A stretch of DNA of 64,000 nt from Escherichia coli (GTDB lineage: Bacteria > Pseudomonadota > Gammaproteobacteria > Enterobacterales > Enterobacteriaceae). Location of the stretch: assembly GCF_050320075.1 (NCBI RefSeq), contig NZ_CP190018.1; one strand, written 5' to 3'. A program made the position numbers and the translations under genes. Positions 38,687-64,000 of the stretch are shown piece by piece. The notes under the pieces were generated by a model that saw only the letters and a program-made list of their open reading frames with translations, did not search any database and was not told where the DNA came from. Positions within the stretch are counted from its first letter, which is position 1, and every line of letters begins with the position of its first letter.

Positions 38687-39423
38687 GCGTTTTCAGCCAG
38701 TTCCTGTGCCATCAGGGCGCGCACTTTTTCCAGGCATGCTGGGGTGTCGACGCCCGGACCGGTTGCGGCAACCTCAAATGTGCGGATGTTGATCCCCGCG
38801 CTCATCAACCGCAGCTGCTCCAGTGATTCTGCCTGCTCCTGCATGGACTCCGGTAACTGGCTGTAGTTTTGCAGCACATCGCGACGATAAGCGTAAATAC
38901 CAACGTGTTTCAGGTAGCGCGCTTTTTCAGCATTACGCGGATACGGAATAGGCGAACGGCTGAAATAAAGCGCATCCTGGCGGGTATTTACCACCACTTT
39001 TACCGTGCTTGGCTCGGTCGCTTCTTCGGCAGAAATCGCGTGGCATAGCGTTGCCACTGGCAACGCGGGGTCATCACGCATTCCTTGTAACAGCGTTTCT
39101 ACATCCCGCGGGCGAATCATTGGTTCGTCGCCCTGCAGGTTAATGTAGATATCTGCCTCGACTTTATGCATCACCTCGACCAGCCGATCGGTGCCGGATT
39201 CATGATCGTTGCGCGTCATGATGGCTTTCCCGCCAAATGCCTGCACGGCCTGTTCAACACGCGGATCGTCTGTTGCCACCCAAACTTCCGCAACGCCCGC
39301 CACCTGTAACGCACGCTCGTAAACATGCTGGATCATCGGTTTACCAACAATATCGAGCAGTGGCTTACCCGGCAGACGCGATGAGCCATAACGAGCCGGG
39401 ATGACAATAACAGCTTTGCTCAT
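38683..39423 (-). CDS. kpsU: CMP-Kdo synthetase KpsU.
   Basis: 246 aa beginning [22 protein letters not shown]; a KdsB paralogue. Confidence 0.9.
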
Positions 39424-39432
39424 TTCAACTCC

Positions 39433-41112: not shown

Positions 41113-41132
41113 AAACTCATTCAGCGACAGCG

Positions 41133-42281
41133 TTAGTCTCGGTGATCTTCAATAACAGCCAGCAACAGTTTCAGGGTGCCGAACAGCAGGCAGCACACCA
41201 GTAACCAGCAGGCGATCAAATAAGGGATATTTGGAAAAGACGATTCCTGCGGCAACTGTGGCGAACTGATCACTGACAGCACCTTGAGCTTACGAGCCGC
41301 TTCTACACGGGTCTTTTCAATGGAGGTCAGGGTCAGTTTGTACAGCTCGGTGTTGAACTCTACTTTTGATTTGATTTCTTCAAAATCCACCGCCATACGG
41401 TTTAGCTTGTCACCCTGCGGCGCTGTGATTTTGCTTTTTTCTTCGTCAATTTGTGCCTGCAATGACTGAATCGCATTACGCGCACTCACAACTTGCGGGG
41501 CGTCCTCACGCAGATACGTCAGCAAGTTCCGCAGGTCCGCTTCCATCTGGATCTTCTGGCCCATCAGCGTATTCACTAACGTGCTCGCCGCCTGTGCCTG
41601 TGCCTGTGGATCCAGAACGTTGTTGTTGTCCTGATAAGAGAGCAATTCCGCTTTGCTGGCGTCCAGACGCTGGCGTGCCTTTTCCATCTCCGTTTCTGCA
41701 AAGGCAAGCTGGTCACGCGCGATGCGATGTGACATCTCATTGATAAAGCGCTCTGACTCTTTCAGCACGGTCTGGTTAAACTTAAGCGCAAACTCCGGGC
41801 TAAAACCCTGCGTCTGAATATTCAGTAATCCGGTTTTATCGTCATACGAGACGTTGATACGGTCCTTGTAGTACTTCAGGAAGCCTTCTGCGGTTTCATC
41901 CTTGCTAAGATGATTAAGAAAATCGAGCCCGCTGTGGCTAAACGCTTCACGAAAATTTAGTTGCTTATCCAGCGCCGCCAGCATATCCGGCGAGTTGATG
42001 TACTCTTTCAGATACAACGCATCTTCTGCGGAACTGGGGTTAGAGGCACCCAGAAGCAGACCAAAATTCAGGCTGCCGCTGTTTAAATCATCCGAGCGTT
42101 TAATGGCGACTTTCGACTCGCTCATATAGCGAGGCTGGCTGAAGATAGCCAGATAGATCAGCAGCACCGCCATCGGTGCCAGAATGATGATTTTCGCCAG
42201 GTGTTTTTGGATATCTGCCAGTGAGATGGCAGACAGACGAGCACGCATCCAGGATACGGCAGACTTCACTTTTATCAACAT
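41133..42281 (-). CDS. kpsE: KpsE inner-membrane polysaccharide co-polymerase/adaptor (PCP-3).
   Basis: 382 aa with N- and C-terminal hydrophobic segments and a coiled-coil centre. Confidence 0.9.
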   Translation of the reverse strand: MLIKVKSAVSWMRARLSAISLADIQKHLAKIIILAPMAVLLIYLAIFSQPRYMSESKVAIKRSDDLNSGSLNFGLLLGASNPSSAEDALYLKEYINSPDMLAALDKQLNFREAFSHSGLDFLNHLSKDETAEGFLKYYKDRINVSYDDKTGLLNIQTQGFSPEFALKFNQTVLKESERFINEMSHRIARDQLAFAETEMEKARQRLDASKAELLSYQDNNNVLDPQAQAQAASTLVNTLMGQKIQMEADLRNLLTYLREDAPQVVSARNAIQSLQAQIDEEKSKITAPQGDKLNRMAVDFEEIKSKVEFNTELYKLTLTSIEKTRVEAARKLKVLSVISSPQLPQESSFPNIPYLIACWLLVCCLLFGTLKLLLAVIEDHRD

Positions 42282-42352
42282 GTAACGATTATCAAAGTTT
42301 CAGTGGGGCGCAAACTCAATGAGAGACTAACCTCTCGCACCCCGTTGCTTAA

Positions 42353-51362: not shown

Positions 51363-51457
51363 GCAAGTATGAATGCGAGACGCTGGCAACTGAGAATGCG
51401 AAGCTGAAGACAGCACTCCCTCAACTGTTCGGGAAAGCTGAAGGAGCGACAAAATGA
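51359..51457 (+). CDS. 32-aa ORF bridging two ATGA overlaps.
   Basis: MSKYECETLATENAKLKTALPQLFGKAEGATK, supported only by the coupling geometry. Confidence 0.25.
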   Translation: MSKYECETLATENAKLKTALPQLFGKAEGATK

Positions 51458-51675
51458 GCAAGCCAACCGACGAAGAAATAGTTCGGGTGTTGGAAGAACA
51501 CGGGCGCTGTATGACTTACGTCGTGACCAACTGGCTTAGGGATAAATATCGCACACTCAAAACGGCATACGTTTTGCGTCGTCTAAAGAAACTGGAGTTC
51601 GACGGGAAAGTAAAGCGTGTTACCAGTTCTTATATAAGACAAATTTGCTGGGAGGCAACCAGTGAGCAAGATTGA
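51454..51675 (+). CDS. Small winged-helix-like DNA-binding protein.
   Basis: 73 aa; EIVRVLEEHGRCMTYVVTNWLRDKYRTLKTAYVLRRLKKLEFDGKVKR has a wHTH-like pattern. Confidence 0.45.
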   Translation: MSKPTDEEIVRVLEEHGRCMTYVVTNWLRDKYRTLKTAYVLRRLKKLEFDGKVKRVTSSYIRQICWEATSEQD

Positions 51676-52261
51676 CTATCAGGCACTGCGTGATGTGGCA
51701 GTGAAAGCCGGTGAAGATAAGTGGCAGGCTAAAAAAATAAACGGTGATTTTTTCGTTATTCGTCAAGGTAGTTATACAAGACAGCATGGCTACACATCGT
51801 ATCAACCCATTGCGGAGATTGATTGTAAGCCAGTCCGGGATTTTGTTGCCAGGGCTAATCCGGCTACCGTGCTGGCTCTGCTGGATGAACTGGAAGCAGC
51901 AAAACAGCATATCGCCGAGTTGGAGTCTCGCATCGTCACCGCTGCCGCCGCTGACGTACTGGCTGAGCGCCAGCGTCAGGTCACCGTAGAGGGCTGGACA
52001 CCTGAACGTGATGATGAATACACCGATGGGGAACTTCCGAGGGCCGCGAGCTGTTATGCGCTAATGGCATGGCGCGAGGAGTGTCTGAGCGATGGTGAGT
52101 ATACCGCCAGCCAGAAAGCCATTCCGTATTACTGGCCATGGGATCCGGCATGGTGGAAACCCATCGACCCGCGGTGTGACCTGGTAAAAGCTGGCGCGTT
52201 AATTCTGGCAGAAATCGAACGCATCGACCGTGCCGCTGGCATTCGCACCAAAGGAGAGTGA
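51662..52261 (+). CDS. Phage Ead/Ea22-like protein with a DUF550-like C-terminal domain.
   Basis: ANPATVLALLDELEAAKQHIAELE is the Ea22-family hallmark. The C-terminal VTVEGWTPERDDEYTDGELPRAA...YWPWDPAWWKP resembles DUF550. GTG start. Confidence 0.6.
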   Translation: MSKIDYQALRDVAVKAGEDKWQAKKINGDFFVIRQGSYTRQHGYTSYQPIAEIDCKPVRDFVARANPATVLALLDELEAAKQHIAELESRIVTAAAADVLAERQRQVTVEGWTPERDDEYTDGELPRAASCYALMAWREECLSDGEYTASQKAIPYYWPWDPAWWKPIDPRCDLVKAGALILAEIERIDRAAGIRTKGE

Positions 52262-52262
52262 T

Positions 52263-52778
52263 ATGGCGTTAACACACCGCGAACTCTGTCAGATTGCGTA
52301 CAAGTTCCTTAAGCGCAACGGGTTCAAGGTTTGTTTTCATGACCGCTTTATAGCTGTAACCAGTACCGGAGAACAACCAGATGCTATGGGATTCAGAAAT
52401 TCAGCATCATGCCTGATAGAGGCGAAGTGTTCTCGTGCTGACTTGTTGGCAGACAGAAAAAAGCGTTTTCGTAAAAATCCGTCTCTTGGAATGGGCGACT
52501 GGCGATTCTTTATTAGTGAGCCGGGAATTATTTCAGTTGAGGATTTACCACCTGGCTGGGGATTACTTCACGTTGTTAACGGAAGAGTACGGAAAGTACA
52601 TGGGTGGCCCAGGGGTAATTGCTGTTGGGGTAATCCTGACGATAAGCCATTTACTGGAAATAAGCAGGTTGAATGCGATTACATGTTATCTGCATTAAGG
52701 CGAATGGAGTTGAGAGGGCACCTTAATGAAATATATGACGGTGTAATTGTTAATAAGAAAGAAGGAAACGCGGCATGA
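52263..52778 (+). CDS. PD-(D/E)XK-type nuclease-like protein (MmcB-like).
   Basis: EQPDAMGF...CLIEAKCSRADLLAD fits a D...E-x-K motif. 171 aa. Confidence 0.45.
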   Translation: MALTHRELCQIAYKFLKRNGFKVCFHDRFIAVTSTGEQPDAMGFRNSASCLIEAKCSRADLLADRKKRFRKNPSLGMGDWRFFISEPGIISVEDLPPGWGLLHVVNGRVRKVHGWPRGNCCWGNPDDKPFTGNKQVECDYMLSALRRMELRGHLNEIYDGVIVNKKEGNAA

Positions 52779-53188
52779 TCACTATTACCAAAGAGCGACT
52801 GCTGACAATCAAGCAGTGGCGCGAAACATACGGACCGGGTAGCAACGTTGTACTGCCAGCAGAAGAAGCGGAAGAACTGGCACGGATTGCACTGGCATCG
52901 CTGGAAGCGGAACCGGTGGCGTGGATGTGTGATGACGAAGATGGTCGTGAATATAACGGTCATAACGAGTTTTCTTATGGAAGACGCGGGATTCCCCTTT
53001 ACGCCGTCCCGCCAGCGCCGAATGGATTGGTTAAAGCCGTGGCTTTCTATGAGCAGGTTAAACGTGAAAATCCGCCAGTTGAAACGGGAGCATGGAAAGA
53101 TGCCGTTGACTGGGTGCTTAAACAAGCTTGTCAGTCTGTAAACACTGGCATCAATGAAAGAAGAACAATTGAAGAAAATGACGATTGA
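52775..53188 (+). CDS. Hypothetical phage-type protein.
   Basis: 137 aa, with ATGA coupling to the upstream gene. Confidence 0.5.
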   Translation: MITITKERLLTIKQWRETYGPGSNVVLPAEEAEELARIALASLEAEPVAWMCDDEDGREYNGHNEFSYGRRGIPLYAVPPAPNGLVKAVAFYEQVKRENPPVETGAWKDAVDWVLKQACQSVNTGINERRTIEENDD

Positions 53189-53240
53189 GCTGGAAGCTGC
53201 AAAAAAGCGCATTGCTGAACTGGAGGAGCGTCGGTCATGA
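53154..53240 (+). CDS. 28-aa Ea22-motif mini-ORF, possibly a fragment.
   Basis: MKEEQLKKMTIELEAAKKRIAELEERRS. Its stop overlaps the next ATG. Confidence 0.25.
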   Translation: MKEEQLKKMTIELEAAKKRIAELEERRS

Positions 53241-53452
53241 GAAAAATCAGTGGAATGTTGAACCTGGAGAAGGCCAGGATGCAGTTGCATGTTTTGTTAT
53301 CAGGACCGGTTCCTGCAATCACTCCGATGGCGCATGCCGTGGCAATAAAAGTTGTGCTTGATGCTCTGGATGCGAGTGAGCGGAGGGTGGCAGAACTGGA
53401 ACAGGCCTGCGCTGCCGCTGGCATTCGTATCAAAGGGGAACAAGTGAAATGA
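53237..53452 (+). CDS. Hypothetical phage-type protein.
   Basis: 71 aa ending AAGIRIKGEQVK, similar to the ...AAGIRTKGE end of the 199-aa Ea22-like protein. Confidence 0.45.
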   Translation: MRKISGMLNLEKARMQLHVLLSGPVPAITPMAHAVAIKVVLDALDASERRVAELEQACAAAGIRIKGEQVK

Positions 53453-53670
53453 AACTGAAGATGCAGGCAATGGACGGCCCGGTGATTATAGAAAGTAGTG
53501 ATGTGACACAGTTTTACCCTGACCATGAAAGTGGCGGGGAACTCACAGCTGTTGAGTACCTTGCTGACGGGGGAAGAATCACCGCGAGGGTGAGGCACTC
53601 TTTTTATCAGGTTGCTGCGGCACTTGCCGGGGCATGGCGTGCGGATGATGCGTCAAAAAGCGGTGGGTGA
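53449..53670 (+). CDS. Hypothetical small protein.
   Basis: 73 aa with ATGA coupling. Confidence 0.45.
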   Translation: MKLKMQAMDGPVIIESSDVTQFYPDHESGGELTAVEYLADGGRITARVRHSFYQVAAALAGAWRADDASKSGG

Positions 53671-53930
53671 GGACTGTGCCGGAATGAGTGTCTGTTCCGA
53701 AGCTGCTGAGCCGCGACATAAATTTTTTATGTTGCGGTGAAGCAGCCGACAAACGAAGAGCGTCAGCGTATCAACAGTTAAGGAAAATATCTTCTGAAGC
53801 CGGACGCGACAGTCAGTCCGGTGGTGCTCGTGTGGTGAAGTGTTTAGCCTGCATCTTTGACAGGGTTCAGTTATAAGCATTTCGGAAACCGTTCCCCGGC
53901 GCAGTCTGCCGGGATTTAAGGAGTTTATTT

Positions 53931-55196
53931 ATGGCGCTACCTGCAGAAAGCCTTATTGCGCATACGCTCAGAAAAATGAAGGCCAGCATGGCAGAGAAAG
54001 CCAGTCGTGAGGACGGGAGGATACGCAGTGGGCTGTTGTTTACCGGCAATGTTCACGATTCGTATCCCCGCAGGCTGTTGCTGGATACGCGCCTTTCTCC
54101 CCTGGATAAAACTGCGTGGATGATGATTCGTCTGCATGCCCTGAATAATGAGGGCGCAGTCTTTCCGACGTACGATGAACTGCAGTTACAACTGGCATCT
54201 CCCGGCTGCGGGAAGGCGTCCCGTGAAACAGTGAGCCGTGTGCTGACAATGCTGCGGCTTACGGGCTGGCTGAGTCTGTGTAAGCGGGTCAGGGATGAAA
54301 AAGGGCGGGTCCGGGGGAATATTTACGCCCTGCATGATGAGCCACTGACCTGCTGTGATGCAGAAAAGTTTGACCCACGATACCTGGATATGGTTCTGGA
54401 TACTGTGAGCAGGAGCCGGAACAAGACAATCCGGCACACAGCCAGTGAAGTGCTCAGCGATATCAAAAATGAGCCCGGTATGCGGCATTACCACAGCCAT
54501 ATCACTCTGTTTGAATCGCGTATGGGGGCTGCACAGACGCCGGTTCAGCTGGCGGCGCGTCAGCGGGTGAACCCGATGGTGAATGAAAACACAGGCAGAG
54601 AGAGTGGTTCGGATTCCGTACATACCCCTGCACCTGTCGTGCAGGTAAACGAACTCAGTGATCCATTAATCGAACTCAGTGAAAAACAGGAAATGAGCCC
54701 ACTCAGTTCGGATTCCGTACCACCTGGAAAATCAGCAACTTATCACTCAGTTCGGAAAACGAACAATTACGTACGTAATATCACACACAGTGTGATTAAA
54801 AATACGTACGTATTGCCTGAGTCGGTGAAATCGCAAATCAGCGCAGAAGACACGGACATGCTGACAAAACAACTGCAGGCATTGCCGGAAGAACTGGCAG
54901 GTAGTGTGCTGAGCAGCCTGTCACAGATGCTCAGCAAAAACACGCTCCAGAATCCGGTTGGCTGGATGCTGGCTGTGATGAAACGTGCGCGTGAGGGGCG
55001 TTTTAATACGCCGGATATGTCCGTGCATGAATCCCGGTCGCCAGCCCGTGCACCATATCAGCCAGTGTACAACCGTGATGAACGTGAACGTCGTCGCGGG
55101 AAAGTGGCGTCACCTGAAACGGTGAGCAACATTGTCGCAGAATTCCGGGCCAGCCTGAAACGTGCAAATGCTGCCCGTCTGGCGGCGCGTGTTTGA
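53931..55196 (+). CDS. Winged-helix Rep-like island protein. From memory of NCBI naming it may be the 'STY4528 family pathogenicity island replication protein'.
   Basis: 421 aa. LSPLDKTAWMMIRLHALNNEGAVFPTYDELQLQLASPGCGKASRETVSRVLTMLRLTGWLSL has a wHTH pattern. The stop codon abuts the 36-bp repeat array. Confidence 0.6.
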   Translation: MALPAESLIAHTLRKMKASMAEKASREDGRIRSGLLFTGNVHDSYPRRLLLDTRLSPLDKTAWMMIRLHALNNEGAVFPTYDELQLQLASPGCGKASRETVSRVLTMLRLTGWLSLCKRVRDEKGRVRGNIYALHDEPLTCCDAEKFDPRYLDMVLDTVSRSRNKTIRHTASEVLSDIKNEPGMRHYHSHITLFESRMGAAQTPVQLAARQRVNPMVNENTGRESGSDSVHTPAPVVQVNELSDPLIELSEKQEMSPLSSDSVPPGKSATYHSVRKTNNYVRNITHSVIKNTYVLPESVKSQISAEDTDMLTKQLQALPEELAGSVLSSLSQMLSKNTLQNPVGWMLAVMKRAREGRFNTPDMSVHESRSPARAPYQPVYNRDERERRRGKVASPETVSNIVAEFRASLKRANAARLAARV

Positions 55197-55197
55197 T

Positions 55198-56130
55198 GTT
55201 AAAAATCACACGGTGTTGCCAGTGGCAACAGCGATTAAAAAATGTACGGTGTTGCCAGTGGCAACAGTGGTTAAAAAATGTGCGGTGTTGCCAGTGGCAA
55301 CAGTGGTTAAAAAATGTGCGGTGTTGCCAGTGGCAACAGTGGTTAAAAAGTGTACGGTGTTGCCAGTGGCAACAGTGGTTAAAAAATATCCGGTGTTGCC
55401 AGTGGCAACAGTGGTTAAAAAATATCCGGTGTTGCCAGTGGCAACAGTGATTAAAAATCGCGCGGTGTTGCCAGAGGCAACAGTGGTTAAAAAGTGTGCG
55501 GTGTTGCCAGTGGCAACAGTGGTTAAAAAGTGTACGGTGTTGCCAGTGGCAACAGTGGTTAAAAAATGTGCGGTGTTGCCAGTGGCAACAGTGGTTAAAA
55601 AGTGTGCGGTGTTGCCAGTGGCAACAGTGGTTAAAAAATGTGCGGTGTTGCCAGAGGCAACAGTGGTTAAAAAGTGTACGGTGTTGCCAGTGGCAACAGT
55701 GGTTAAGAAATATACGGTGTTGCCAGTGGCAACAGTGGTTAAAAAGTGTGCGGTGTTGCCAGTGGCAACAGTGGTTAAAAAGTGTACGGTGTTGCCAGTG
55801 GCAACAGTGGTTAAAAAATGTGCGGTGTTGCCAGTGGCAACAGTGGTTAAAAAGCGTGCGGTGTTGCCAGTGGCAACGGTGGTTAAAAAATGTGCGGTGT
55901 TGCCAGTGGCAACAGTGGTTAAAAAGTGTACGGTGTTGCCAGTGGCAACAGTGGTTAAGAAATATACGGTGTTGCCAGTGGCAACAGTGATTAAAAATTG
56001 CGCGGTGTTGCCAGAGGCAACAGTGGTTAAAAAGTGTGCGGTGTTGCCAGTGGCAATAGTGATTAAAAATTGTACGGTGTTGGCAGTGCCAACAGTGATT
56101 AAAAATTGTACTGAGTTGGCACTGCCAACA
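55198..56130. repeat. Array of 26 tandem 36-bp repeats, each with a 7-bp inverted repeat core. It is a candidate centromere (sopC-like) or iteron origin.
   Basis: Unit GGTGTTGCCAGTGGCAACAGTGGTTAAAAARTGTRC with an exact 36-bp register starting at 55212. The core is TGTTGCCA-G-TGGCAACA. See findings. Confidence 0.95.
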
Positions 56131-56234
56131 TGACGTAATTTCAGTCATTCCTTTTTTTATTTTTGATTGTCAGATCTCCGTCTGCAGGCTGACTATTTCA
56201 GCCCGATATCCTTTTCTTTTGCCGGAGATATAAC

Positions 56235-56960
56235 ATGTCTGAAGAACAAATGAAGGAACCCGCATCCCGTCGTGTAGGTGCGCTTACTTCACCAGTGAAT
56301 ATCGAGTTGCACTCCCGTTATGCAATCATGCTGTGGGAAGGGAGACGAGGCACGAAAAGTAAAAGTGCTGAAGATCGCAGGGCAGCGAAAATAATGAGTA
56401 TGCCGGAAGCTATTAAGATGACTGGCGGCCTCTACAGAGATTCTCTTGCTGATAATCCCTATGCGGATGAAACGATGTGGAAAGTTGAAAATGCGATTGT
56501 TGAGGCAACCGATAAAATTAATGCTGAAGTTCGTGTACTTGAAGGGATCCTCAGAAATATTCCGTCAGTGATCACTGTCCGGGATGCTCTTTCTCGTTCT
56601 CCTGTCGATATTGGGGTTTTCAGCCGCTCTCCTCTGGGCTACCGCTGTGTATGGCTTCTTGTCGGGTATGATCAGCTTGCATTAAAAACGTTTCAGGCAG
56701 CACATCTGGGGCTTATTTCACGAAACAGGCGTGATGAGTTGTTGTCTTCTGGTGCGCATCTTATCCGCAAAATTTACGGTATTCTGCAGGGGTATCGCAC
56801 TATGGCGGTAACTCGGGATGATATTGAGAATAAAACAGAAAAGGCAGAGAAAGCTATTGCCCGTTATGGTATGCCTCATGATGATATTCTATCCGGTAAG
56901 CTCAGATCTTCATTTTCTCCGCCCCTGAACCGTAAGTCCCGTGATGCATCCCGGCAATGA
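56235..56960 (+). CDS. Conserved-looking ICE protein of unknown function.
   Basis: 241-aa ORF between the repeat array and topB. It is followed by a GAGGAG RBS for topB. Confidence 0.6.
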   Translation: MSEEQMKEPASRRVGALTSPVNIELHSRYAIMLWEGRRGTKSKSAEDRRAAKIMSMPEAIKMTGGLYRDSLADNPYADETMWKVENAIVEATDKINAEVRVLEGILRNIPSVITVRDALSRSPVDIGVFSRSPLGYRCVWLLVGYDQLALKTFQAAHLGLISRNRRDELLSSGAHLIRKIYGILQGYRTMAVTRDDIENKTEKAEKAIARYGMPHDDILSGKLRSSFSPPLNRKSRDASRQ

Positions 56961-56976
56961 CAGGTGAGGAGAATTC

Positions 56977-58995
56977 ATGCGTCTCTTTTTGTGTGAGAAA
57001 CCTTCACAGGCCGGTGATATAGCCAGAGTACTTGGGGCTGCCAGACGTGTTGATGGTGCGATTGAAGGTAAGGACTTTGTTGTGACCTGGGCCTTTGGTC
57101 ACTTGCTGGAGCAGGCGCCACCGGAGGCGTATGGTGAGCAGTTTGGCAGTCCCTGGAAAATTGACGTTTTGCCGGTCTTTCCTGAACAGTGGCAGATGGT
57201 GGTGAAGGATAATGTCGGGAAGCAGTTTAATGTGATCAGCCGCCTTCTCCGTAAGGCTGATGAAGTGGTGATTGCCACTGACGCCGATCGTGAAGGCGAA
57301 ATTATCGCAAGGGAACTGCTGGATTATTGTGGTTATACCGGCGTTGTGCGCCGTCTCTGGCTGTCCGCACTGGATGAGAGCAGTATCAGGGAGGCGCTGG
57401 GCAGGATACTGCCCGGAGAGGAGACCGAGAAGTTATATGAAGCCGGTAAGGGACGCAGCCGGGCTGACTGGCTGACGGGGATCAACCTGACGCGTCTGTA
57501 TACCCTGAAAGCCAGGGAGTGTGGTGTGTCCGGCGTCCTCTCTGTTGGCAGGGTGCAGACGCCCACGCTTGCGATGGTGGTCAGACGGGATGCAGAAATC
57601 AAAAATTTTATTCCGGTACCTTACTGGCAACTGTATCTCTGGCTGGAGAAGGACAATGTGCGTTTTCGTACCTCCTGGATTGCGGCAGCGCAGTACTGCG
57701 ATACTGAAAAACGGTGTGTGAATGTGCAGGCGGCAACAGCCGTCCTGTCACAGTGTCGTCAGGCCGGTGTTGCTGTTGTCAGGGATGTCAGCAGCAGACG
57801 GGAGAAAAAGCAGCCTCCGCTGTGTTTTTCGCTCGGAACGCTGCAGGAGGTCTGTTCGCGCAAATTTGGCCTCGGCGCGCAGGCCGTTCTTGATATAGCC
57901 CAGTCGCTGTACGAAAAGCATAAGGCGACAACATATCCGCGTACAGATTGCGGTTATCTGCCTGTGTCGATGTACAAAGAAGTGCCTGACGTACTGGCAG
58001 CGCTGGAAAAAACCGATCCGGATATTGCCCCGGAGCTGGCAAAACTCAGTCCTGATATTGTGTCGGGGATCTGGAACGACAGGAAGATCACCGCGCATCA
58101 TGCGATAATCCCCACCCGTCAGCCGTTTAATATTGGGGCGCTGAGTGATAATGAGCTTAAGGTGTACCGGTTAATTCGTCAGCATTATCTGGCTCAGTTT
58201 TTACCCGTTCAGGAGCTGGATGTCACAGAGGCCACTTTTCTTGTTGCGGGGCAGTTGTTTGGAACGCGGGGGCGAGTGGAGGTTGTCAGGGGATGGCGTG
58301 CGCTTTTTGTGTCAGATTCGGCGGGAGAGGAAGAGGATGTTGCAGACGATGAGCAGGCGATGCCCCTTCCCGTACTGGCAAAAGGCGATGAATGTCGTCC
58401 TGCTGAAGCTGAACTCAAAGAGATGCAGACCACGCCACCGCGTCATTATACGGAAGGCACGCTGATTGCGGCGATGAAAAACGCTGCGGGGATGGTGAGT
58501 GATCCGGCACTGAAAAAAGTGTTACGCGAAAATGCGGGGCTGGGCACTGAAGCGACCCGCGCAGAAATACTGGAAACGTTGTTCACCCGCAAATATATCG
58601 AGAAGCAGGGTAAGCATATCCGTGCCACGCAACTGGGGGCGGAGCTGATAGCGGGATTGCCGGAGGCGCTGACCAGTCCGGGGACAACGGCGCTGTGGGA
58701 ACAGGCTCTGGATGATATTGCACAGGGTAAACTGTCACTGTCGTCATTTATGGAAAAGCAGAAACAGTGGCTTAACCACCTGGTGGCCGGTGCAAGGCAG
58801 CAGCAACTGCAGATCACGGCACCGGTTACGCCGGCATGCCCTCTTTGTGGGAGCAGAATGCGGAAAGTGAAGATGAAAAGCGGGAAAGGGGAATTCTGGA
58901 GCTGCCAGCGTTATCCGGAGTGTAAGGGAGTGATTTCAGAGCAGAAACCGACATCCGGGAAACGGGGCGGCAGAAAAATTAAAAAGCATGGATGA
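56977..58995 (+). CDS. topB: DNA topoisomerase III (type IA).
   Basis: Toprim motifs MRLFLCEKPSQ and TDADREGE. The active-site region is TTYPRTDCGYL. A C-terminal zinc ribbon reads CPLCGSRM...FWSCQRYPECKG. Confidence 0.9.
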   Translation: MRLFLCEKPSQAGDIARVLGAARRVDGAIEGKDFVVTWAFGHLLEQAPPEAYGEQFGSPWKIDVLPVFPEQWQMVVKDNVGKQFNVISRLLRKADEVVIATDADREGEIIARELLDYCGYTGVVRRLWLSALDESSIREALGRILPGEETEKLYEAGKGRSRADWLTGINLTRLYTLKARECGVSGVLSVGRVQTPTLAMVVRRDAEIKNFIPVPYWQLYLWLEKDNVRFRTSWIAAAQYCDTEKRCVNVQAATAVLSQCRQAGVAVVRDVSSRREKKQPPLCFSLGTLQEVCSRKFGLGAQAVLDIAQSLYEKHKATTYPRTDCGYLPVSMYKEVPDVLAALEKTDPDIAPELAKLSPDIVSGIWNDRKITAHHAIIPTRQPFNIGALSDNELKVYRLIRQHYLAQFLPVQELDVTEATFLVAGQLFGTRGRVEVVRGWRALFVSDSAGEEEDVADDEQAMPLPVLAKGDECRPAEAELKEMQTTPPRHYTEGTLIAAMKNAAGMVSDPALKKVLRENAGLGTEATRAEILETLFTRKYIEKQGKHIRATQLGAELIAGLPEALTSPGTTALWEQALDDIAQGKLSLSSFMEKQKQWLNHLVAGARQQQLQITAPVTPACPLCGSRMRKVKMKSGKGEFWSCQRYPECKGVISEQKPTSGKRGGRKIKKHG

Positions 58996-59015
58996 TGATT
59001 ACATGCTTTTTTTTA
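58982..59015 (+). terminator. Rho-independent terminator of topB.
   Basis: AAAAGCATG-gatgatgatta-CATGCTTTT followed by a T-run. It overlaps the topB stop. Confidence 0.7.
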
Positions 59016-59218
59016 TTTGTTAAAGTACATACGCTTTGATGTATACCCCCGTTATCAGCGGGAAACAGAGTGGCGATTAAACAACGGCGTTGCTCTGTTT
59101 CTGATACAGCAACGACCACTGCGTCCGGTTGTGTTGCAAGGCGCACGAACTCCGTGAAAACCGCGTCGGGAGTGATCCCCGGAGAAAAGTGAGATAACCT
59201 CAGGGCTGGTAACCCGTG

Positions 59219-59248
59219 ACGGCGCTGAATTTTCAGCGCCGTTTTTTA
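59219..59248 (+). terminator. Strong rho-independent terminator inside the topB-ssb intergenic region.
   Basis: ACGGCGCTGA-attt-TCAGCGCCGT followed by TTTTTTA. Confidence 0.75.
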
Positions 59249-59314
59249 TTGGTGTTTTCTGCTTGACTTTATTTATGGCTGTTTTAAAAATGAGCATGCT
59301 AAATAGCTGCTTTG

Positions 59315-59472
59315 CAGCCAACCAATCTCCCGGTGGTCTGAGAGGGAGGCTTACGCGACCACACTGTCATCTTCGGATGACCAGCCAATGTTCCAGCAGT
59401 CTGAGAGGAGCGCCTTCGGGTGACTGCCAGCCAATGTTTCAGCGATCTGAGAGAAACGCCTTCGGGTGATTG
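59315..59472 (+). ncRNA. Three tandem pseudoknot units, a STAXI-like structured RNA or ssDNA motif.
   Basis: The units start at 59315, 59381 and 59427. Each has two interleaved stems with compensatory changes between units (details in findings). The context, between topoisomerase and SSB genes, fits the published STAXI description. Confidence 0.6.
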
Positions 59473-59685
59473 CAATATCCTCGTAGCCTGAAAGGGGATG
59501 CCTTTATGGCGGTACATCCGTTTAGCCTCTGGGAACGGATATCACCACTGGTGATTGAGGTACGTTTAACTGCACAGACAGCCGGAAATTCAGCTGATTC
59601 CGGCATCCCCGACGGGAACTATCACTCCCGTCAGGGCTGGTGATGTTCTCCGTCATATCTTTTTTTACTCCATGGAGAAATCATC

Positions 59686-60150
59686 ATGTCTGCAACTAAC
59701 TCTACTTCTGCAAAAACTGAATACTTCAACCTGACCATGAAAGGTCTTGGGTATCTCAGCAATGTTCGTCAGGTTAACCATCAGAACGGTTCGTTCCTCA
59801 GCTGCGTGATTAACGCACTGAGTGGACCAACGGACAATCCGTCCTATACGCGTTTTGATGTCACGGTTGCCGGTAAAGAGGCGACCACCCTGATCTCCCG
59901 CTGCCAGAAAGCAGTGGATGAGGACCGCAAGGTACTGCTTGGTTTTACGTTAAGCAACCTTGCCACCGACATTTTCACCCTGAACAAGGGGGAGCATGCC
60001 GGTGAGCAACGCGTCAGCCTGAAAGCCCGCCTGATCAAGGTGGACTGGATAAAAATAGGCCAGGAGCAGGTCTATAAGGCTGAAAAAGCGGAGTCCCAGC
60101 CACCGAGCCATGGCACCACAAAACGTGAATACGCAGAAGACTCCTTCTGA
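59686..60150 (+). CDS. OB-fold/SSB-like island protein, DUF3577-like. From memory it may be the 'STY4534 family ICE replication protein'.
   Basis: 154 aa with a GGAGA RBS. The family name is recalled, not verified. Confidence 0.5.
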   Translation: MSATNSTSAKTEYFNLTMKGLGYLSNVRQVNHQNGSFLSCVINALSGPTDNPSYTRFDVTVAGKEATTLISRCQKAVDEDRKVLLGFTLSNLATDIFTLNKGEHAGEQRVSLKARLIKVDWIKIGQEQVYKAEKAESQPPSHGTTKREYAEDSF

Positions 60151-60169
60151 TCGCGTATTTTTCTCACTG

Positions 60170-60225
60170 CCTCCCTGATAAAGAAAACAGACCACCATCA
60201 GGGAGGTCTGTTTTCTTATTGTTTT
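60170..60225 (+). terminator. Hairpin terminator.
   Basis: CCTCCCTGAT...ATCAGGGAGG is a 10-bp stem followed by TCTGTTTTCTTATTGTTTTT. Confidence 0.6.
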
Positions 60226-60249
60226 TACTGAACTTTAAGGAAACAAATT

Positions 60250-60453
60250 ATGACTTCTACAAACGGTATTCTCGCAGCTGCGGCAGGTTATACATTACCT
60301 CTGGAAATACTCAAAAGTGGGCGCGGATATTATATTGGCACTCAGTGTTCTGAAGGACCGGTATCCCGTGAATCAGAAGAGTATTTCAAAAAATATGAGC
60401 AGGCTGAGCGGACGCTGAAAAATGGCACCTGGACACAACGTCATGCCTGGTAA
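60250..60453 (+). CDS. Small hypothetical protein.
   Basis: 67 aa with an AAGGAAA RBS, immediately upstream of ssb. Confidence 0.5.
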   Translation: MTSTNGILAAAAGYTLPLEILKSGRGYYIGTQCSEGPVSRESEEYFKKYEQAERTLKNGTWTQRHAW

Positions 60454-60465
60454 TGAGGAGGTGCT

Positions 60466-61023
60466 ATGGCTTCACGCGGCGTAAACAAAGTTATCCTGAT
60501 AGGACATCTGGGGCAGGATCCGGATATCCGGTATTTCCCCAATGGCGGTGGCGCTGTGGCGAATCTGTCACTGGCGACCAGCGACACCTGGCGGGATAAA
60601 CAGAGCGGTGAAATGAAGGAAGTTACTGAATGGCACCGCGTTGTTCTCTATGGAAAACTGGCTGAAGTTGCCGGCGAGTACCTGCATAAGGGGTCGCAGG
60701 TGTATATAGAAGGCCAGCTTAAAACCCGTAAATGGTTTGACCAGCAGAATGGTGTGGACCGTTATTCAACTGAGGTTGTTGTGGGCGTGAATGGTGTCAT
60801 GCAGATGCTGGGTTCATCGCGTCAGCAGGGCGCTTCCGGTAATGGTGCTTCAGCACTGGCACAAGGGGGCCAGGGACATCCGCCGAAGACGACCGGACAG
60901 ACTGGTCGTGCCACCCGGACGACGTCAACGGGTAATGGTGCTCCACCAATGGACTTTGACGATGATATCCCCTTTATGGGGCTCGGGTATGGCATGGAAC
61001 GACGAATTATTCATGCCATGTAA
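60466..61023 (+). CDS. ssb: Single-stranded DNA-binding protein with a 15-aa extension beyond the canonical DDDIPF tip.
   Basis: [19 protein letters not shown]...[32 protein letters not shown] is an OB fold, followed by a Gly/Gln-rich linker. The protein ends [11 protein letters not shown] and then [15 protein letters not shown]. Confidence 0.9.
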
Positions 61024-61033
61024 TATTAACCAC

Positions 61034-61056
61034 GGGGCGTTACGCCCCACTTTTTT
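61034..61056 (+). terminator. Rho-independent terminator after ssb.
   Basis: GGGGCG-tta-CGCCCC followed by ACTTTTTT. Confidence 0.7.
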
Positions 61057-61069
61057 ATCCGGAGGTTCC

Positions 61070-62038
61070 GTGAGTGAAAAAGTTAACAAAATCACTATGA
61101 TTCATGACGGGGCGTTCAAGAAGACGCTTGAAGATCCCGCCGCAGTAAGGGACTTTCTTGAACAGGTCTTGACACACGATCAGATATCCCGCTGTAATCT
61201 TGATACAATAGAAGTTGAAAAGAATTCGTTCGTGACGGAAAGTTTGCGTCAGCATGCCTGTGATGTTTTGATCAGCATGAAGACAAACGACGGCAGGGAC
61301 GGATACATTTATACCTTAATCGAGCACCAGAGTTCGCCGGATAAATTCATCCCGCTGCGTATGATGCGATATATCCTGGCTGTAATGGAGCAACATGTTG
61401 AAAAGCATAAGTGTGCACCTGTGGTGATCCCCGTGTTGTTTTATCATGGTGCAATGCGGCCATATCCGTATCCGCTGAACTGGGTGGATTGTCTGGATGA
61501 CCCGGAGTACGGACGGGAGATTTATGGCGAGTCAAAGTCATTCAGTCTGGTGGATGTCAGTACGCTTGATGATGATGAAATTGAGCAGTATCGCCGGATG
61601 GCGGCGCTGATGTACACCATGAAGTCCGGAACTCAGGGTGATTTGATTGAGCTGATTGGTAAATCGATCACACTGACGGATAAGTATGGCAGTAGCATTC
61701 ACCTGAATACGGTGCTTACTTATCTGATGGAACTTTACCAGATGGATGTTGCTGAACTTTTTGAAGCAATATCCACACACTATCCCAGCCATAAGGGGGT
61801 GATTATGACGATAGCGGAACAACTGGAAGAGAAAGGTCGGGTTGAAGGTCTGGAGAAAGGCCTTGAGAAAGGCCTTGAGAAAGGCCGTGCTGAAGGCCGT
61901 GCTGAAGAGCGTCAAAAAGCGCTTGCAGAAACTTATGCATCTGTCCGTCGCATGAGCGATATGGGGATGTCAACGGAAGTTATTAAGCAGGCACTTCATC
62001 TTTCTGATGAACAGATTCAGGAAGCGCTTAATAATTAA
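61070..62038 (+). CDS. Rpn-family (YhgA-like, PD-(D/E)XK) recombination-promoting nuclease.
   Basis: GTG 61070 lies 5 nt after GGAGG (ATG 61098 is an alternative start). HDGAFKKTLEDPAAVRDFL...ACDVLISMKTNDG...YTLIEHQSSPD is the YhgA-like core. The C-terminus has GLEKG/GRAEG repeats. Confidence 0.75.
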   Translation: MSEKVNKITMIHDGAFKKTLEDPAAVRDFLEQVLTHDQISRCNLDTIEVEKNSFVTESLRQHACDVLISMKTNDGRDGYIYTLIEHQSSPDKFIPLRMMRYILAVMEQHVEKHKCAPVVIPVLFYHGAMRPYPYPLNWVDCLDDPEYGREIYGESKSFSLVDVSTLDDDEIEQYRRMAALMYTMKSGTQGDLIELIGKSITLTDKYGSSIHLNTVLTYLMELYQMDVAELFEAISTHYPSHKGVIMTIAEQLEEKGRVEGLEKGLEKGLEKGRAEGRAEERQKALAETYASVRRMSDMGMSTEVIKQALHLSDEQIQEALNN

Positions 62039-62516
62039 CCTCGCATCGTAATGATGTGGCAGAGCGCGACTGATGCGTCAGAACGTGTGATGCCCTGTGA
62101 ACACAGCGCCTGCCATTGTGCAGGCGTTTTTTTATCAATCAGTCTGGTAAATTGTGATGGAACTTTACCAGATGGATTTTGCTGAACTTTCTGAAGCAAT
62201 ATTCACACACTATCCCAGCCACAAGGGGGTGATTATGACGATAGCGGAACAACTGGAAGAGAAAGGCCTTGAGAAAGGCCGTGCAGAAGAGCGTCAAAAA
62301 GCGCTTGCAGAAACCTATGCATCTGTCCGTCGCATGAGTGATATGGGGATGTCAACAGAAGTTATTAAGCAAGCTCTTCAGCTTTCTGATGAACAGATTC
62401 AGGAAGCGCTTAATAATTAACCTCACATCGTAATGATGTGGCAGAGCGCGACTGATGCGTCAGAATGCGTGATGCCCTGTGAACACAGCGCCTGCCATTG
62501 TGCAGGCGTTTTTTTT
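61725..62516 (+). repeat. Tandem direct duplication of the rpn 3' end plus its terminator.
   Basis: 61725-62133 is repeated at 62155-62516 with scattered substitutions and a roughly 48-nt deletion in the GLEKG/GRAEG repeat region. The two copies are separated by a 21-bp spacer. Confidence 0.9.
62157..62420 (+). CDS. Free-standing copy of the Rpn C-terminal domain (87 aa).
   Basis: MELYQMDFAELSEAIFTHYPSHKGVIMTIAEQLEEKG...SDEQIQEALNN is near-identical to the last roughly 100 aa of the upstream Rpn. It has its own terminator copy (CGCCTGC...GCAGGCG followed by a T-run). Confidence 0.5.
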   Translation: MELYQMDFAELSEAIFTHYPSHKGVIMTIAEQLEEKGLEKGRAEERQKALAETYASVRRMSDMGMSTEVIKQALQLSDEQIQEALNN

Positions 62517-62610
62517 GTCAACCGGAAATCAGTTGTTCATTGAGCCTTCCCTCACTTCTTCTGCAAATTGACCTCTGACTTTATCACTTCACTGCAGAGG
62601 TAATTCCCTG

Positions 62611-63189
62611 ATGAAAATATCCCTTCTTTTTTCCGCGCTGTCTGCCTGTGTGTTGCTGGCGGGGTGCCAGAGTCCGCAAAAACTGCAGCAGAGGGCGGCC
62701 GCCGTCCCGGTACCGTCGGTGACAGTCAGCAACAATGTCCGTCCGGCAAATCCGGATGTGTACGCCGGTGCGGCGACACCGGAGGTGGTGCGTTATGACC
62801 GCTATCTGCTGGTTAACACGGCACCGGATACGGTACAGCGTGACCCGCTTTCCCAGGTGATTGACATCCGCATTCCGGCATCACTGAAGCCGACGGTGGC
62901 GGATGCGATGCGTTATGCCCTGAAACAGTCCGGCTACACACTCTGCGCCACGGGGCCTGCCAACGGCGTGCTCTACCGTCAGCCGTTACCGGCCGTGCAG
63001 TACCAGACCGGGCCGGTCAGACTGCGGAGCGCGCTGCAGATGATGGCGGGGCCGGCATGGCAGCTTGAGGTGGATGATGTGCAGCGCGTGGTCTGTCACA
63101 GTCTGCGTGAGGGTTATCAGTTACCGGCACGCCAGCTGGCGCCGGTACCGGCGGTGGTGAAGGTATCCGGTGCGGAGCAGAAAAAATGA
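62611..63189 (+). CDS. pilL: PilL-like lipoprotein, the first gene of the ICE type IV pilus / transfer region.
   Basis: Lipobox VLLAGCQS. Its size and its position after ssb match PilL of SPI-7/PFGI-1-class elements. Confidence 0.65.
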   Translation: MKISLLFSALSACVLLAGCQSPQKLQQRAAAVPVPSVTVSNNVRPANPDVYAGAATPEVVRYDRYLLVNTAPDTVQRDPLSQVIDIRIPASLKPTVADAMRYALKQSGYTLCATGPANGVLYRQPLPAVQYQTGPVRLRSALQMMAGPAWQLEVDDVQRVVCHSLREGYQLPARQLAPVPAVVKVSGAEQKK

Positions 63190-63965
63190 GTGAAAAGCAA
63201 CAGGAGATATCAGCCGCTGCAGGTGGTTCAGGTGGCACCACACCGTCAGGAAGGGTGAAACGGCGTCCCTCTCCCGGTCTGTTCGCAGGGCTGGTGACGG
63301 TGGTGATGATGGCGGTCGCGGTTGCCGGTCTGGCTCGTTATACGGGAGAGCAGGACAGGCGAATGACTGCGCTGGCGGTGCAGATGAAGGCGTATTCTGA
63401 TGCGCTCGCCTTGTCCGGAACGGAACTGGTACCACTGAGGGAGAGGCTGGCTGAGACCGAAAAACAGCTGAAGAGTGTGGCGGAACGTATTTCTCAGCTG
63501 GAAAAGCGTCCTGCACTGACGGAGGAAGAGCATGCGCGTACGGGAGAGATGGCCGCCAGCCTGGCATCACTGCAGACCTCACTGGCGCAACAGGGAGAAA
63601 CGCTTCGCACGTATGAGCAGCGACTGGAGAAGGTGGAGAAGACTTCAGTCACCCCGGTATCACCGTCATCTGCGAAAGGCGCGGGCGGGACGATGAAGGG
63701 CACAGCGGCGGTTGCGCCACAGAAGAAACGAATGTCTGCCGGCGTGCCGGTGGTCAGTCGTACCGCGCCGTTTGTTCTGACCGGGACAGAGCAGCGGGGA
63801 GGCCGTACGTATGCGGCAGTGGCCCCCCGTGGATTCAGCAGTCTTGCTGATGTGACGTTACTGGGTGAAGGGGAGAGCACGACAGGCTGGGTGCTTGAGC
63901 GTGCAGGACGTGGCGAGGCCACGTTCCGGGTGAATGGTCGTCAGGTCCGGGTCATGGTGGAGTGA
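63186..63965 (+). CDS. Membrane-anchored coiled-coil protein of the transfer region.
   Basis: 259 aa with ATGA overlap onto pilL. It has a TM segment (GLFAGLVTVVMMAVAVAGLA) and a coiled-coil centre. Confidence 0.55.
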   Translation: MSEKQQEISAAAGGSGGTTPSGRVKRRPSPGLFAGLVTVVMMAVAVAGLARYTGEQDRRMTALAVQMKAYSDALALSGTELVPLRERLAETEKQLKSVAERISQLEKRPALTEEEHARTGEMAASLASLQTSLAQQGETLRTYEQRLEKVEKTSVTPVSPSSAKGAGGTMKGTAAVAPQKKRMSAGVPVVSRTAPFVLTGTEQRGGRTYAAVAPRGFSSLADVTLLGEGESTTGWVLERAGRGEATFRVNGRQVRVMVE

Positions 63966-63969
63966 GAAA

Positions 63970-64000
63970 ATGAAGCTGAAAAGTCTGTCACTGGCGCTCA
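63970..64000 (+). CDS. Start of the next transfer-region gene (partial; signal-peptide-like MKLKSLSLAL).
   Basis: ATG 63970 lies 5 nt after the upstream stop, and the gene is truncated by the window edge. Confidence 0.35.
   Translation, partial: MKLKSLSLAL

Follow-up and report, generated by a model that had tools for sequence, protein, structure and literature searches.

An ICE-borne rpn nuclease gene of Escherichia coli followed by a tandem duplicate of its C-terminal module

Gene content and setting of the rpn locus

The window analysed here is a stretch of 64,000 nucleotides from Escherichia coli (contig NZ_CP190018.1), and all coordinates refer to it. Towards its end lies a full-length rpn gene, whose product is termed RpnL, followed on the same strand by a second, stand-alone copy of its C-terminal module, termed rpnSs. 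The full-length gene and its neighbours are as follows.

60466-61023, + strand: ssb of the integrative conjugative element (ICE), upstream neighbour (domain searches, annotation)
61070-62038, + strand: rpn (RpnL), GTG start, 322 aa, with an N-terminal PD-(D/E)XK YhgA-like nuclease domain and a variable C-terminal domain
62611-63189, + strand: pilL2 of a PFGI-1/SPI-7-class ICE, downstream neighbour (TIGR03748, 130 bits against a cut-off of 64; annotation)

The product of rpn matches the Pfam family Transposase_31 (PF04754) over residues 12-204 (E 7.5e-61; 205.7 bits against a cut-off of 21) and exceeds the curated cut-off of the Rpn family model TIGR01784 (124.4 bits against 52.1). Its domains thus predict that the gene is an Rpn (YhgA-like) nuclease, the identity proposed in a first-pass annotation. 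PGAP annotates rpn at identical coordinates in strains EC17CM2 and CH4804. When the product was aligned with the ICE alleles and with K-12 RpnE, to which it is only 40% identical, D65, E85, H86 and Q87 (the IEHQ motif) were invariant; we take these to be the catalytic residues of the Rpn family. A phmmer search of the full-length protein against PDB sequences gave no match, and PADLOC found no match to an Rpn model at the locus.

Judged from its neighbours, the locus is cargo between ssb and pilL2 of an ICE of the SPI-7/PFGI-1 type. Matching genomes carry further genes of this class, encoding ParA, SPI-7-type DnaB, STY4528/STY4534 family proteins, topoisomerase III, TraD and TIGR037xx ICE proteins. 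The window is colinear with strain EC17CM2 only from position 44486 on, and a search of a plasmid collection returned no match to the locus.

The duplicated unit and its small proteins

The 3' part of rpn, together with its flank, is present twice, and each copy ends in a terminator-like structure.

61725-62133, + strand: copy 1 of the duplicated unit, comprising an 80-nt leader, Shine-Dalgarno sequence (SD), RpnS coding region, 3' UTR and terminator (repeat search and alignment)
62155-62516, + strand: copy 2 of the unit (repeat search and alignment)
62134-62154, + strand: inter-copy junction, 21 nt outside the repeat, containing TGGTAAATT (62145-62153), a candidate extended -10 element
61829-61903, + strand: 12-nt (4-aa) repeat tract of copy 1, 75 nt
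62259-62285, + strand: 12-nt repeat tract of copy 2, 27 nt, four repeats fewer than in copy 1
62105-62135, + strand: terminator-like hairpin and T-run after rpn (hairpin 62105-62128, 9-pair stem with 6 G-C pairs; fold computed)
62487-62518, + strand: terminator-like hairpin and T-run after rpnSs (hairpin 62487-62510; fold computed)

Repeat search and alignment recovered the tandem duplication at the boundaries given in the first-pass annotation, with about 95% identity between the copies and a 48-nt contraction of the 12-nt repeat tract. Two families of direct repeats, each in register, make up the duplication: 61725-61877 with 62155-62307 at a spacing of 430, and 61877-62133 with 62259-62515 at a spacing of 382. 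The second is 257 nt long at 95% identity, which is far beyond chance. Pairwise alignment of the copies shows a single 48-nt gap, within the repeat tract, and scattered substitutions, among them the V->F, F->S, S->F and H->Q replacements already read from the sequence. The copies differ by about 4-5%, and around ten position-specific differences between them are fixed and common to several strains. The copies have thus diverged in place, in line with the earlier proposal of divergence after duplication, and the duplication is older than the divergence of these strains. The tract of copy 1 varies in length among the strains inspected (75, 63 and 39 nt). Outside the repeats, the domain encoded by copy 2 is 98% identical to that of copy 1; over the 44 codons that follow the tract, six synonymous changes and one non-synonymous change separate the RpnSs coding part from copy 1, as read from the alignments. 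This synonymous bias may be inherited, if the copies derive from different full-length alleles.

Within each copy, a start codon preceded by an SD sequence predicts a small protein.

61793-61807, + strand: SD AAGGGGG (61793-61799) and predicted internal start ATG (61805-61807) of the in-gene RpnS, in frame with rpn (sequence)
61805-62038, + strand: in-gene RpnS, predicted 77 aa (MTIAEQLEEKGRVEG...EALNN), start by homology
62223-62237, + strand: SD AAGGGGG (62223-62229) and ATG (62235-62237) of rpnSs, 5-nt spacing (sequence)
62235-62420, + strand: rpnSs, predicted 61-aa stand-alone RpnS paralogue (MTIAEQLEEKGLEKGRAEERQ...EALNN), by homology

The first-pass annotation had recognised the duplicate as the C-terminal (RpnS) module with a terminator of its own, which the alignment and the hairpin with its T-run bear out, and had taken its product to be an 87-aa protein starting at 62157. 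The corresponding ORF (62157-62420) is present in the ORF list, and PGAP calls it an 'RpnC/YadD family protein' (WP_001696688.1). The matching in-frame ATG in the full-length gene does exist, at 61727-61729 rather than at 61728 as had been stated. Nevertheless, the product of rpnSs is likely to be 61 aa long, from the ATG at 62235. The internal starts of both copies are homologous to the K-12 rpnE/ypaA start AAAGGAGAGATTAATG, which gives MTIAE; K-12 RpnE and YpaA, all ICE alleles and 11 other loci have kept this MTIAE start together with its SD. In strain NCTC9112, the leader upstream of the rpnSs start is out of frame while a 66-aa ORF remains intact. Furthermore, in RpnS proteins a stretch of 8-20 residues separates the initiating Met from the first of the 4-aa repeats (Zhong et al. 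2023, PMC10400941); here the repeats begin about 9-12 residues after the Met of the 61-aa form, within that range, and at about residue 35 of the 87-aa form, outside it. Because the conserved start, the repeat spacing and the frameshifted leader all point to 62235, the longer product is not favoured.

Residue 1 of the RpnA-S crystal chain 7th0_A also aligns with the predicted initiating Met of RpnS and RpnSs, and an RpnS/RpnSs profile matches this chain over almost its full length (E 6.1e-7). The small ORF matches the C-terminal end of TIGR01784 (E 1.6e-7). An AF2 model of the 61-aa RpnSs is helical (mean pLDDT 82.6); Foldseek found nothing significant for it in the PDB, with 7th0, the RpnAS three-helix bundle, at rank 4 (E 3.8; TM 0.61 normalised to the target). 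In some species, RpnS genes that stand apart carry the DUF4351 annotation (PMC10400941), but RpnSs differs from such stand-alone proteins in that Pfam DUF4351 (PF14261) gave no match at E<=10 to its 61-aa form, to the 77-aa and 122-aa forms or to K-12 YpaA. As YpaA also lacks this match, DUF4351 is not defining for RpnSs.

The two copies end in an identical terminator-like hairpin and T-run, and a strong terminator precedes the duplicate by 20 nt. Lying behind the rpn terminator, rpnSs needs either a promoter in the junction or read-through. Possibly, TGGTAAATT acts as an extended -10 promoter element; the motif CTGGTAAAT is common to this junction, to the junction of a diverged ICE lineage and to rpn itself at about 61655. 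A sigma-70 consensus scan found no promoter between the rpn terminator and rpnSs, its only hit being TGAACA-16-AATAAT near the end of each copy. Rfam matches over 60900-62700 were solely sub-threshold and overlapped the terminators.

Distribution and published counterparts

Of 5426 complete genomes, 52 have this ICE-borne rpn; among these 52 E. coli genomes, 49 carry two copies of the module and three a fused single copy. The first-pass annotation had suggested looking into independent assemblies and related islands, and both comparisons were made. The junction of the window occurs in 31 genomes: the match is 100% in 29 complete E. coli genomes, and in the other two identity is 98.5-99%. Another 18 genomes with a diverged allele show two match places each, and the three of these that were inspected all have a downstream copy of their own. 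Tandem repeats can be mis-assembled, but 29 complete genomes, which differ in laboratory, host and country, share an identical junction and the copies carry fixed differences, leaving an assembly artefact with a negligible probability; it was ruled out on these grounds.

The alleles that retain the duplicate differ by 13% in their N-terminal domains. In every copy inspected, the SD, the ORF and the terminator are intact, whereas the upstream leader has been hit by a deletion or frameshift. In E19035 and GF60, a leader of the copy 1 type is joined to a tail and tract of the copy 2 type; the duplication has collapsed by unequal recombination in a few strains. Its boundaries vary between lineages and loci. 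Among other species, a contig search with an alignment-based query found a downstream copy at 11 of 79 Rpn loci, while the same type of search with a single-protein query yielded no confirmed relatives.

Downstream rpnSs genes are known from K-12, namely ypaA (rpnESs) after rpnE and rpnCSs after rpnC, and the RpnESs protein has been detected in that strain (PMC10400941). The loss of rpnSs by fusion has also been described, and the Discussion of the same paper raises Rpn-promoted recombination as the origin of such copies (PMC10400941). The novelty that the first-pass annotation saw in a separate copy does not hold, and the arrangement, though real, is largely an ordinary, ICE-borne case of the published rpnSs scheme. 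As here, both K-12 systems have a full-length Rpn gene with a tandem copy of the RpnS module behind it on the same strand, 4-aa repeat tracts that are unequal between the copies, and a form of loss in which the N-terminal domain becomes fused to the downstream copy; rpnE-ypaA additionally shares the SD and ATG with the MTIAE start context. In rpnE-ypaA, the duplicate begins precisely at the SD, 12 nt past the rpnE stop, and no terminator separates the copies. The unit described here, in contrast, is about 410 nt long, has an 80-nt leader ahead of the SD and extends through the 3' UTR and terminator, and it resides on an ICE rather than on the core chromosome. The antiphage toxin-antitoxin systems RpnAL/RpnAS and RpnP2LS share with this locus the PD-(D/E)XK YhgA-like nuclease domain, the internal start for a small C-terminal protein (here predicted) and the hypervariable 4-aa repeat helix. 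The likeness to RpnAL/RpnAS extends to the profile homology of RpnS and RpnSs with the RpnA-S structure.

Repeat mismatch and the possible role of RpnSs

The tract of RpnSs is 11 aa long and that of RpnL 27 aa, a difference of four 4-aa repeats. Across seven ICE genotypes, the tracts of the full-length and stand-alone proteins measure 27/11, 23/11, 15/19, 15/15, 7/11, 7/11 and 19/11 aa. Repeat number differs between the full-length gene and the downstream copy in six of these seven genotypes, in K-12 (where RpnE and YpaA differ by one repeat) and at all 11 loci of other Enterobacterales; VTB97420v is the one genotype with identical tracts in both copies. For RpnC, a mismatch of one repeat abolished the action of RpnS on RpnL (PMC10400941), a rule demonstrated with one added repeat only and one that may not hold for the family at this locus. 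Sequence comparison finds RpnSs without the matching repeats that blocking of RpnL would require; going by the published specificity rule, it is not expected to neutralise its neighbour RpnL. This speaks against the simple restraint of the neighbouring toxin that had been envisaged for it.

The interpretation we favour, with a probability of roughly 0.6, is that of an ICE-borne rpnL/rpnS 'gene-within-a-gene' nuclease locus of the toxin-antitoxin type, to which rpnSs adds a duplicated RpnS copy of different specificity. The identity and origin of rpn-rpnSs are very probable: rpnSs would have arisen by tandem duplication of the last 410 nt or so of rpn, carrying along the leader, SD, internal start, C-terminal domain, 3' UTR and terminator. 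Its product would be a 61-aa helical protein homologous to RpnAS, RpnES and YpaA that dimerises through the long repeat-bearing helix, and it may be transcribed from a junction promoter, with TGGTAAATT as the candidate extended -10 element, or by read-through. With a tract four units shorter, RpnSs would pair poorly with RpnL, whose cognate antitoxin would be the 77-aa in-gene RpnS from the ATG at 61805. Most likely, rpnSs is a retained and expressed RpnS paralogue of different specificity, and it may also serve as a recombination partner able to replace the C-terminal allele of the full-length gene. Any specific role assigned to the small protein is tentative.

According to the reading first put forward, RpnSs would simply give the resident RpnL an additional, separately expressed supply of antitoxin. 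RpnS proteins do block RpnL, the K-12 RpnESs protein is made (PMC10400941), the domain is the same and 98% identical outside the repeats, and VTB97420v has equal tracts in both copies; yet tracts are unequal in the remaining six ICE genotypes, in K-12 and at 11 of 11 other loci, a single-repeat mismatch sufficed to abolish RpnCS action on RpnCL (PMC10400941), and the in-gene RpnS already supplies a matched antitoxin, which makes this reading unlikely. If the repeat-matching rule fails for the family at this locus, RpnSs could be a plain extra antitoxin. It is also rather unlikely that the duplicate is a neutral by-product of recombination at a hypervariable repeat locus, perhaps promoted by Rpn, repeatedly made and collapsed and with no protein function. 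Fusion collapse in three genomes, boundaries that vary among lineages and loci and the lack of a promoter in the sigma-70 consensus scan are in keeping with such an origin, as is the suggestion that RpnL may initiate such events (PMC10400941). Against it, the duplicate is retained in 49 of 52 genomes across alleles with a 13% difference in the N-terminal domain, it has kept its SD, ORF and terminator while the leader decayed through deletion or frameshift, and with a copy divergence of about 4-5% it has outlived strain divergence despite forming a direct repeat prone to recombination.

RpnSs might instead neutralise non-resident Rpn alleles with a matching tract, such as those of competing or incoming ICEs, and so confer cross-immunity rather than self-regulation. 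In its favour, the stand-alone copy is as a rule mismatched with the resident gene, copy 2 carries the same 11-aa tract, EKGLEKGRAEE, in both ICE lineages, and repeat variation prevents inhibition in trans (commentary PMC10400984). This proposal is purely inferential, however, and none of the full-length genes inspected has an 11-aa tract (their tracts measure 7, 15, 19, 23, 27 and 35 aa), so that we regard it as very unlikely. A broader proposition, which is itself doubtful, holds that the near-universal mismatch is selected and the stand-alone copy deliberately non-cognate, either as a stored cassette of alternative specificity that recombination swaps into the toxin gene or as an antitoxin against foreign Rpn alleles.

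The locus adds an ICE-borne case to the published rpnL/rpnS/rpnSs scheme, and it shows that diverged ICE alleles have stably kept this arrangement. What is new is of limited scope: where the small protein probably starts and how long it is, a natural series of the states sketched by Zhong et al., leading from two copies to fusion, and a near-constant repeat mismatch, which makes the role of RpnSs proteins directly testable. If the mismatch were indeed selected, rpn-rpnSs would serve to switch specificity or to confer cross-immunity, and would not be a toxin that has an antitoxin to spare.

The rpn-rpnSs locus and its published precedent

By its matches to Pfam Transposase_31 (E 7.5e-61, residues 12-204) and TIGR01784 'Rpn family' (124 bits, cut-off 52), the product of the rpn ORF is clearly an Rpn/YhgA-like protein, in line with the first-pass annotation, which had named it an Rpn nuclease. 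The tandem duplication of the 3' part of the gene, also proposed there (copy 1, 61725-62133; copy 2, 62155-62516), was recovered by repeat search and by pairwise alignment, with a terminator in each copy. Substitutions between the copies are scattered, the amino-acid differences listed earlier are present, and the single 48-nt gap falls within the tract of 12-nt (4-aa) repeats, confirming the reported contraction in copy 2.

Features of the rpn-rpnSs locus, with the basis of each call
61070-62038, + strand: rpn ORF, GTG start, 322 aa
61725-61877 and 62155-62307: direct-repeat family 1, in register (repeat search)
61877-62133 and 62259-62515: direct-repeat family 2, in register, 257 nt, 95% (repeat search)
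61793-61799, + strand: Shine-Dalgarno (SD) of in-gene RpnS, with ATG 61805 (homology to K-12 start)
62105-62128 and 62487-62510: hairpin and T-run, the same in both copies, at the 3' end of each (terminator scan, folds)
62145-62153: extended -10-like element TGGTAAATT in the junction between the copies (read from sequence)
62157-62420, + strand: 87-aa ORF (ORF list)
62223-62229, + strand: SD of rpnSs, the stand-alone downstream copy, with ATG 62235 (homology to K-12 start)

Twenty-eight complete E. coli chromosomes carry the 2.9-kb region that includes the locus at 99.4% identity or more; a search of plasmids with it gave no match. A 151-nt junction probe matched at 100% identity in 29 genomes and at 98.5-99% in 2 more, ruling out an assembly artefact. 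Judged by family matches to its neighbours (ssb upstream, pilL2 (TIGR03748) downstream) and by the surrounding genes in matching genomes, which encode ParA, SPI-7-type DnaB, STY4528/STY4534 family proteins and topoisomerase III, with TraD and the TIGR037xx set of integrative conjugative elements (ICEs) also nearby, rpn-rpnSs is cargo of an SPI-7/PFGI-1-class ICE.

When 38000-44485 and 44486-64000 were compared with the EC17CM2 ICE, the window was colinear only from 44486 onward, with the kps capsule export region (kpsF/E/D, kdsB) just upstream, as in strain YZLc1-3; by this alignment, the ICE end abuts the capsule locus in the window's strain. RefSeq annotates a 78-nt tRNA-Ser at the EC17CM2 ICE boundary (4381-4458 of record L004, window ~44528-44605); ARAGORN detected none, either in the window or over this part of L004, and Rfam at gathering score returned nothing at window ~44528-44605. 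An ICE ORF contains an array of 36-nt tandem repeats (window 55198-56133); its EC17CM2 counterpart (L004 15042-15734) is a 'hypothetical protein', and the window is ~250 nt longer there.

Zhong et al. (PNAS 2023; PMC10400941) reported that the gene downstream of rpnE, ypaA, represents a second copy (rpnESs) whose protein was detected, that some strains carry rpnCSs downstream of rpnC, and that rpnSs copies arose independently, each from its own upstream gene. A direct check of K-12 showed rpnE-ypaA to be a tandem duplication that begins at the SD, with 72 nt at 97% and a further 102 nt at 84%, and the ICE locus resembles it in having a tandem duplicate of the RpnS module downstream of the full-length gene. 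The 'different genetic solution' suggested by the first-pass annotation is therefore the known rpnSs arrangement. Its suggestion of a footprint of Rpn-promoted recombination had likewise been raised in the Discussion of PMC10400941, which speculates that RpnL (full-length Rpn) initiates the recombination producing rpnSs copies. The locus is an ICE-borne example of the known rpnL/rpnS/rpnSs kind; the first-pass interpretation is right in kind but not new. The small ORF is already annotated by PGAP, under the newer name 'RpnC/YadD family protein' (WP_001696688.1) and in older annotations as 'hypothetical protein' or 'transposase'.

Start, size and expression of the small protein

The small protein had been described as 87 aa, starting at 62157 opposite an internal ATG of rpn. 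The ORF and the internal ATG both exist, but the latter lies at 61727-61729 and not 61728, and 62157 is probably the wrong start, the MTIAE ATG at 62235 being favoured. K-12 RpnES and YpaA both start MTIAERL, preceded by AAAGGAGAGATTA, and both ICE copies have the homologous AAGGGGGTGATT-ATG leading into MTIAEQL. A profile of RpnS/RpnSs sequences matches 7th0_A, a crystal chain of RpnA-S, at E 6.1e-7; residue 1 of the chain aligns at profile position 22, the MTIAE Met. The 4-aa repeats begin 8-20 residues after the RpnS Met (PMC10400941); here they begin ~9-12 residues past the MTIAE Met, inside that range, and only at about residue 35 from the 87-aa start. In NCTC9112, the part of copy 2 that lies 5' of MTIAE does not share the frame of copy 1, and PGAP calls a 66-aa ORF from MTIAE. 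An MTIA[EQ] start heads 11/11 downstream copies from other species. Because of these agreements, we assign 61 aa (62235-62420) to the predicted rpnSs product and 77 aa (61805-62038) to the predicted in-gene RpnS. The AF2 model of the 61-aa form has helices H3-9, H17-36, H41-48 and H52-60 (mean pLDDT 82.6); Foldseek found no significant match for it in the PDB, with RpnA-S at rank 4 (E 3.8).

The rpnSs copy begins 20 nt past a strong terminator, and a sigma-70 consensus scan found no site upstream of it. The core of the junction element, CTGGTAAAT, is also present at the junction of a diverged lineage and inside rpn at ~61655, and all K-12 rpn genes have an internal promoter (PMC10400941). By its sequence, the junction motif is a candidate promoter element for rpnSs. 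Each RpnS coding copy closes with a promoter-like TGAACA-16-AATAAT (62008-62035, 62390-62417), followed by a structured ~90-nt 3' UTR ending in the terminator (z -2.3 and -2.5), and each copy could yield a short 3'-UTR RNA. Conservation of this UTR does not extend to the diverged ICE lineage, and Rfam gave only sub-threshold matches.

Distribution and history of the duplication

An rpn N-terminal-domain probe is present in 52/5426 complete genomes. The duplication was checked across them, as had been proposed: 31 have the window-type junction, three are single-copy (E19035, GF43, GF60), and in 18/18 genomes with a diverged allele the leader (the part of the duplicated unit 5' of the SD) occurs in two places. 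The diverged allele has an N-terminal domain ~87% identical and a C-terminal domain of another type (...RSRLVLMMRQKGKSLEEIKDFL...), and each of the three such genomes examined has its own downstream copy of matching type, with ORFs of 122 aa (2013C-3033, 2015C-3121) and 66 aa (NCTC9112).

E19035 and GF60, the two single-copy genomes examined, combine a copy-1-type leader with a copy-2-type tract, tail and 3' UTR, and the E19035 C-terminus is copy 2 of strain CM2; this mosaic is what unequal recombination gives as its 'fusion' outcome. About 10 sites separate copy 1 from copy 2 consistently across window-type and CM2-type ICEs, a pattern that places the duplication before their split. The duplicated unit of the diverged lineage begins ~80 nt further 5' than that of the window lineage, which retains only CTGGTAAAT of the extra stretch, followed by an apparent ~75-nt deletion. 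This suggests one old duplication with subsequent leader erosion, independent events in the two ICE lineages being a possible alternative. Between copy 1 and the coding part of RpnSs there are 6 synonymous changes and 1 non-synonymous change outside the tract; the 26 leader codons show 1 synonymous and 3 non-synonymous changes. The synonymous bias is weak evidence of selection, because two of the leader changes match the states of the full-length gene in the diverged lineage.

In the second ICE lineage (comparison loci L006/L007, 3498-3866; L008, 3701-3901), the post-repeat C-terminal domain is of an unrelated type (RSRLVLMMRQ...NGALNQD), and the 80-nt leader is ~97% identical, against 87% for the N-terminal domain. 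The pattern points towards domain swapping, or towards concerted evolution of the two copies. PGAP names the small ORFs there 'transposase' or 'DUF433 domain-containing protein'. In YZLc1-3 (NZ_CP123240.1), the match to the rpn N-terminal probe begins only at nt 134, with two places in the record, a possible interruption of the nuclease gene; its junction and rpnSs agree 100% with the window.

The 61-aa sequence, used as a protein query, retrieved 33 short proteins (34-106 aa, tracts of 7 to 35 aa), mostly called 'transposase'; they came from E. coli, and the sources named included Salmonella and Enterobacter. In 11 (14%) of the 79 usable Rpn loci of other species (one genome per species, 37-48% identical to the ICE Rpn), the C-terminal domain is present again on the same strand, no more than 1.5 kb downstream. 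Independent rpn-rpnSs pairs occur in Photorhabdus (L052, L076, L083) and other Enterobacterales (L025, L033, L039, L045, L059/L063), with stop-to-copy distances of 66-390 nt, widely variable boundaries and tract differences as large as six repeats.

Repeat-number mismatch and the role of RpnSs

Tract length in the full-length gene / downstream copy
Window: 27 / 11 aa
AR_0089: 23 / 11 aa
CM2: 15 / 19 aa
VTB97420v: 15 / 15 aa
2013C-3033 and 2015C-3121: 7 / 11 aa
NCTC9112: 19 / 11 aa

The K-12 RpnE and YpaA tracts are one repeat apart, and the full-length and downstream tracts are mismatched at 11/11 other-species loci. RpnCS with one extra repeat no longer acts on RpnCL, and matching restores the action (PMC10400941); according to a commentary, repeat mismatch prevents complex formation (PMC10400984). 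If this rule holds here, the rpnSs product would not be the antitoxin of the adjacent RpnL, and in-gene RpnS would serve instead. The simple 'restraint' of the adjacent Rpn by the copy, as first envisaged, is then probably wrong, given the 27 / 11 aa of the window. The mismatch could be mere drift of two hypervariable tracts; even if it arose in this way, it speaks against strong selection for pairing between RpnSs and the resident RpnL. The tract mismatch is the one point at which these observations go beyond the main text of PMC10400941.
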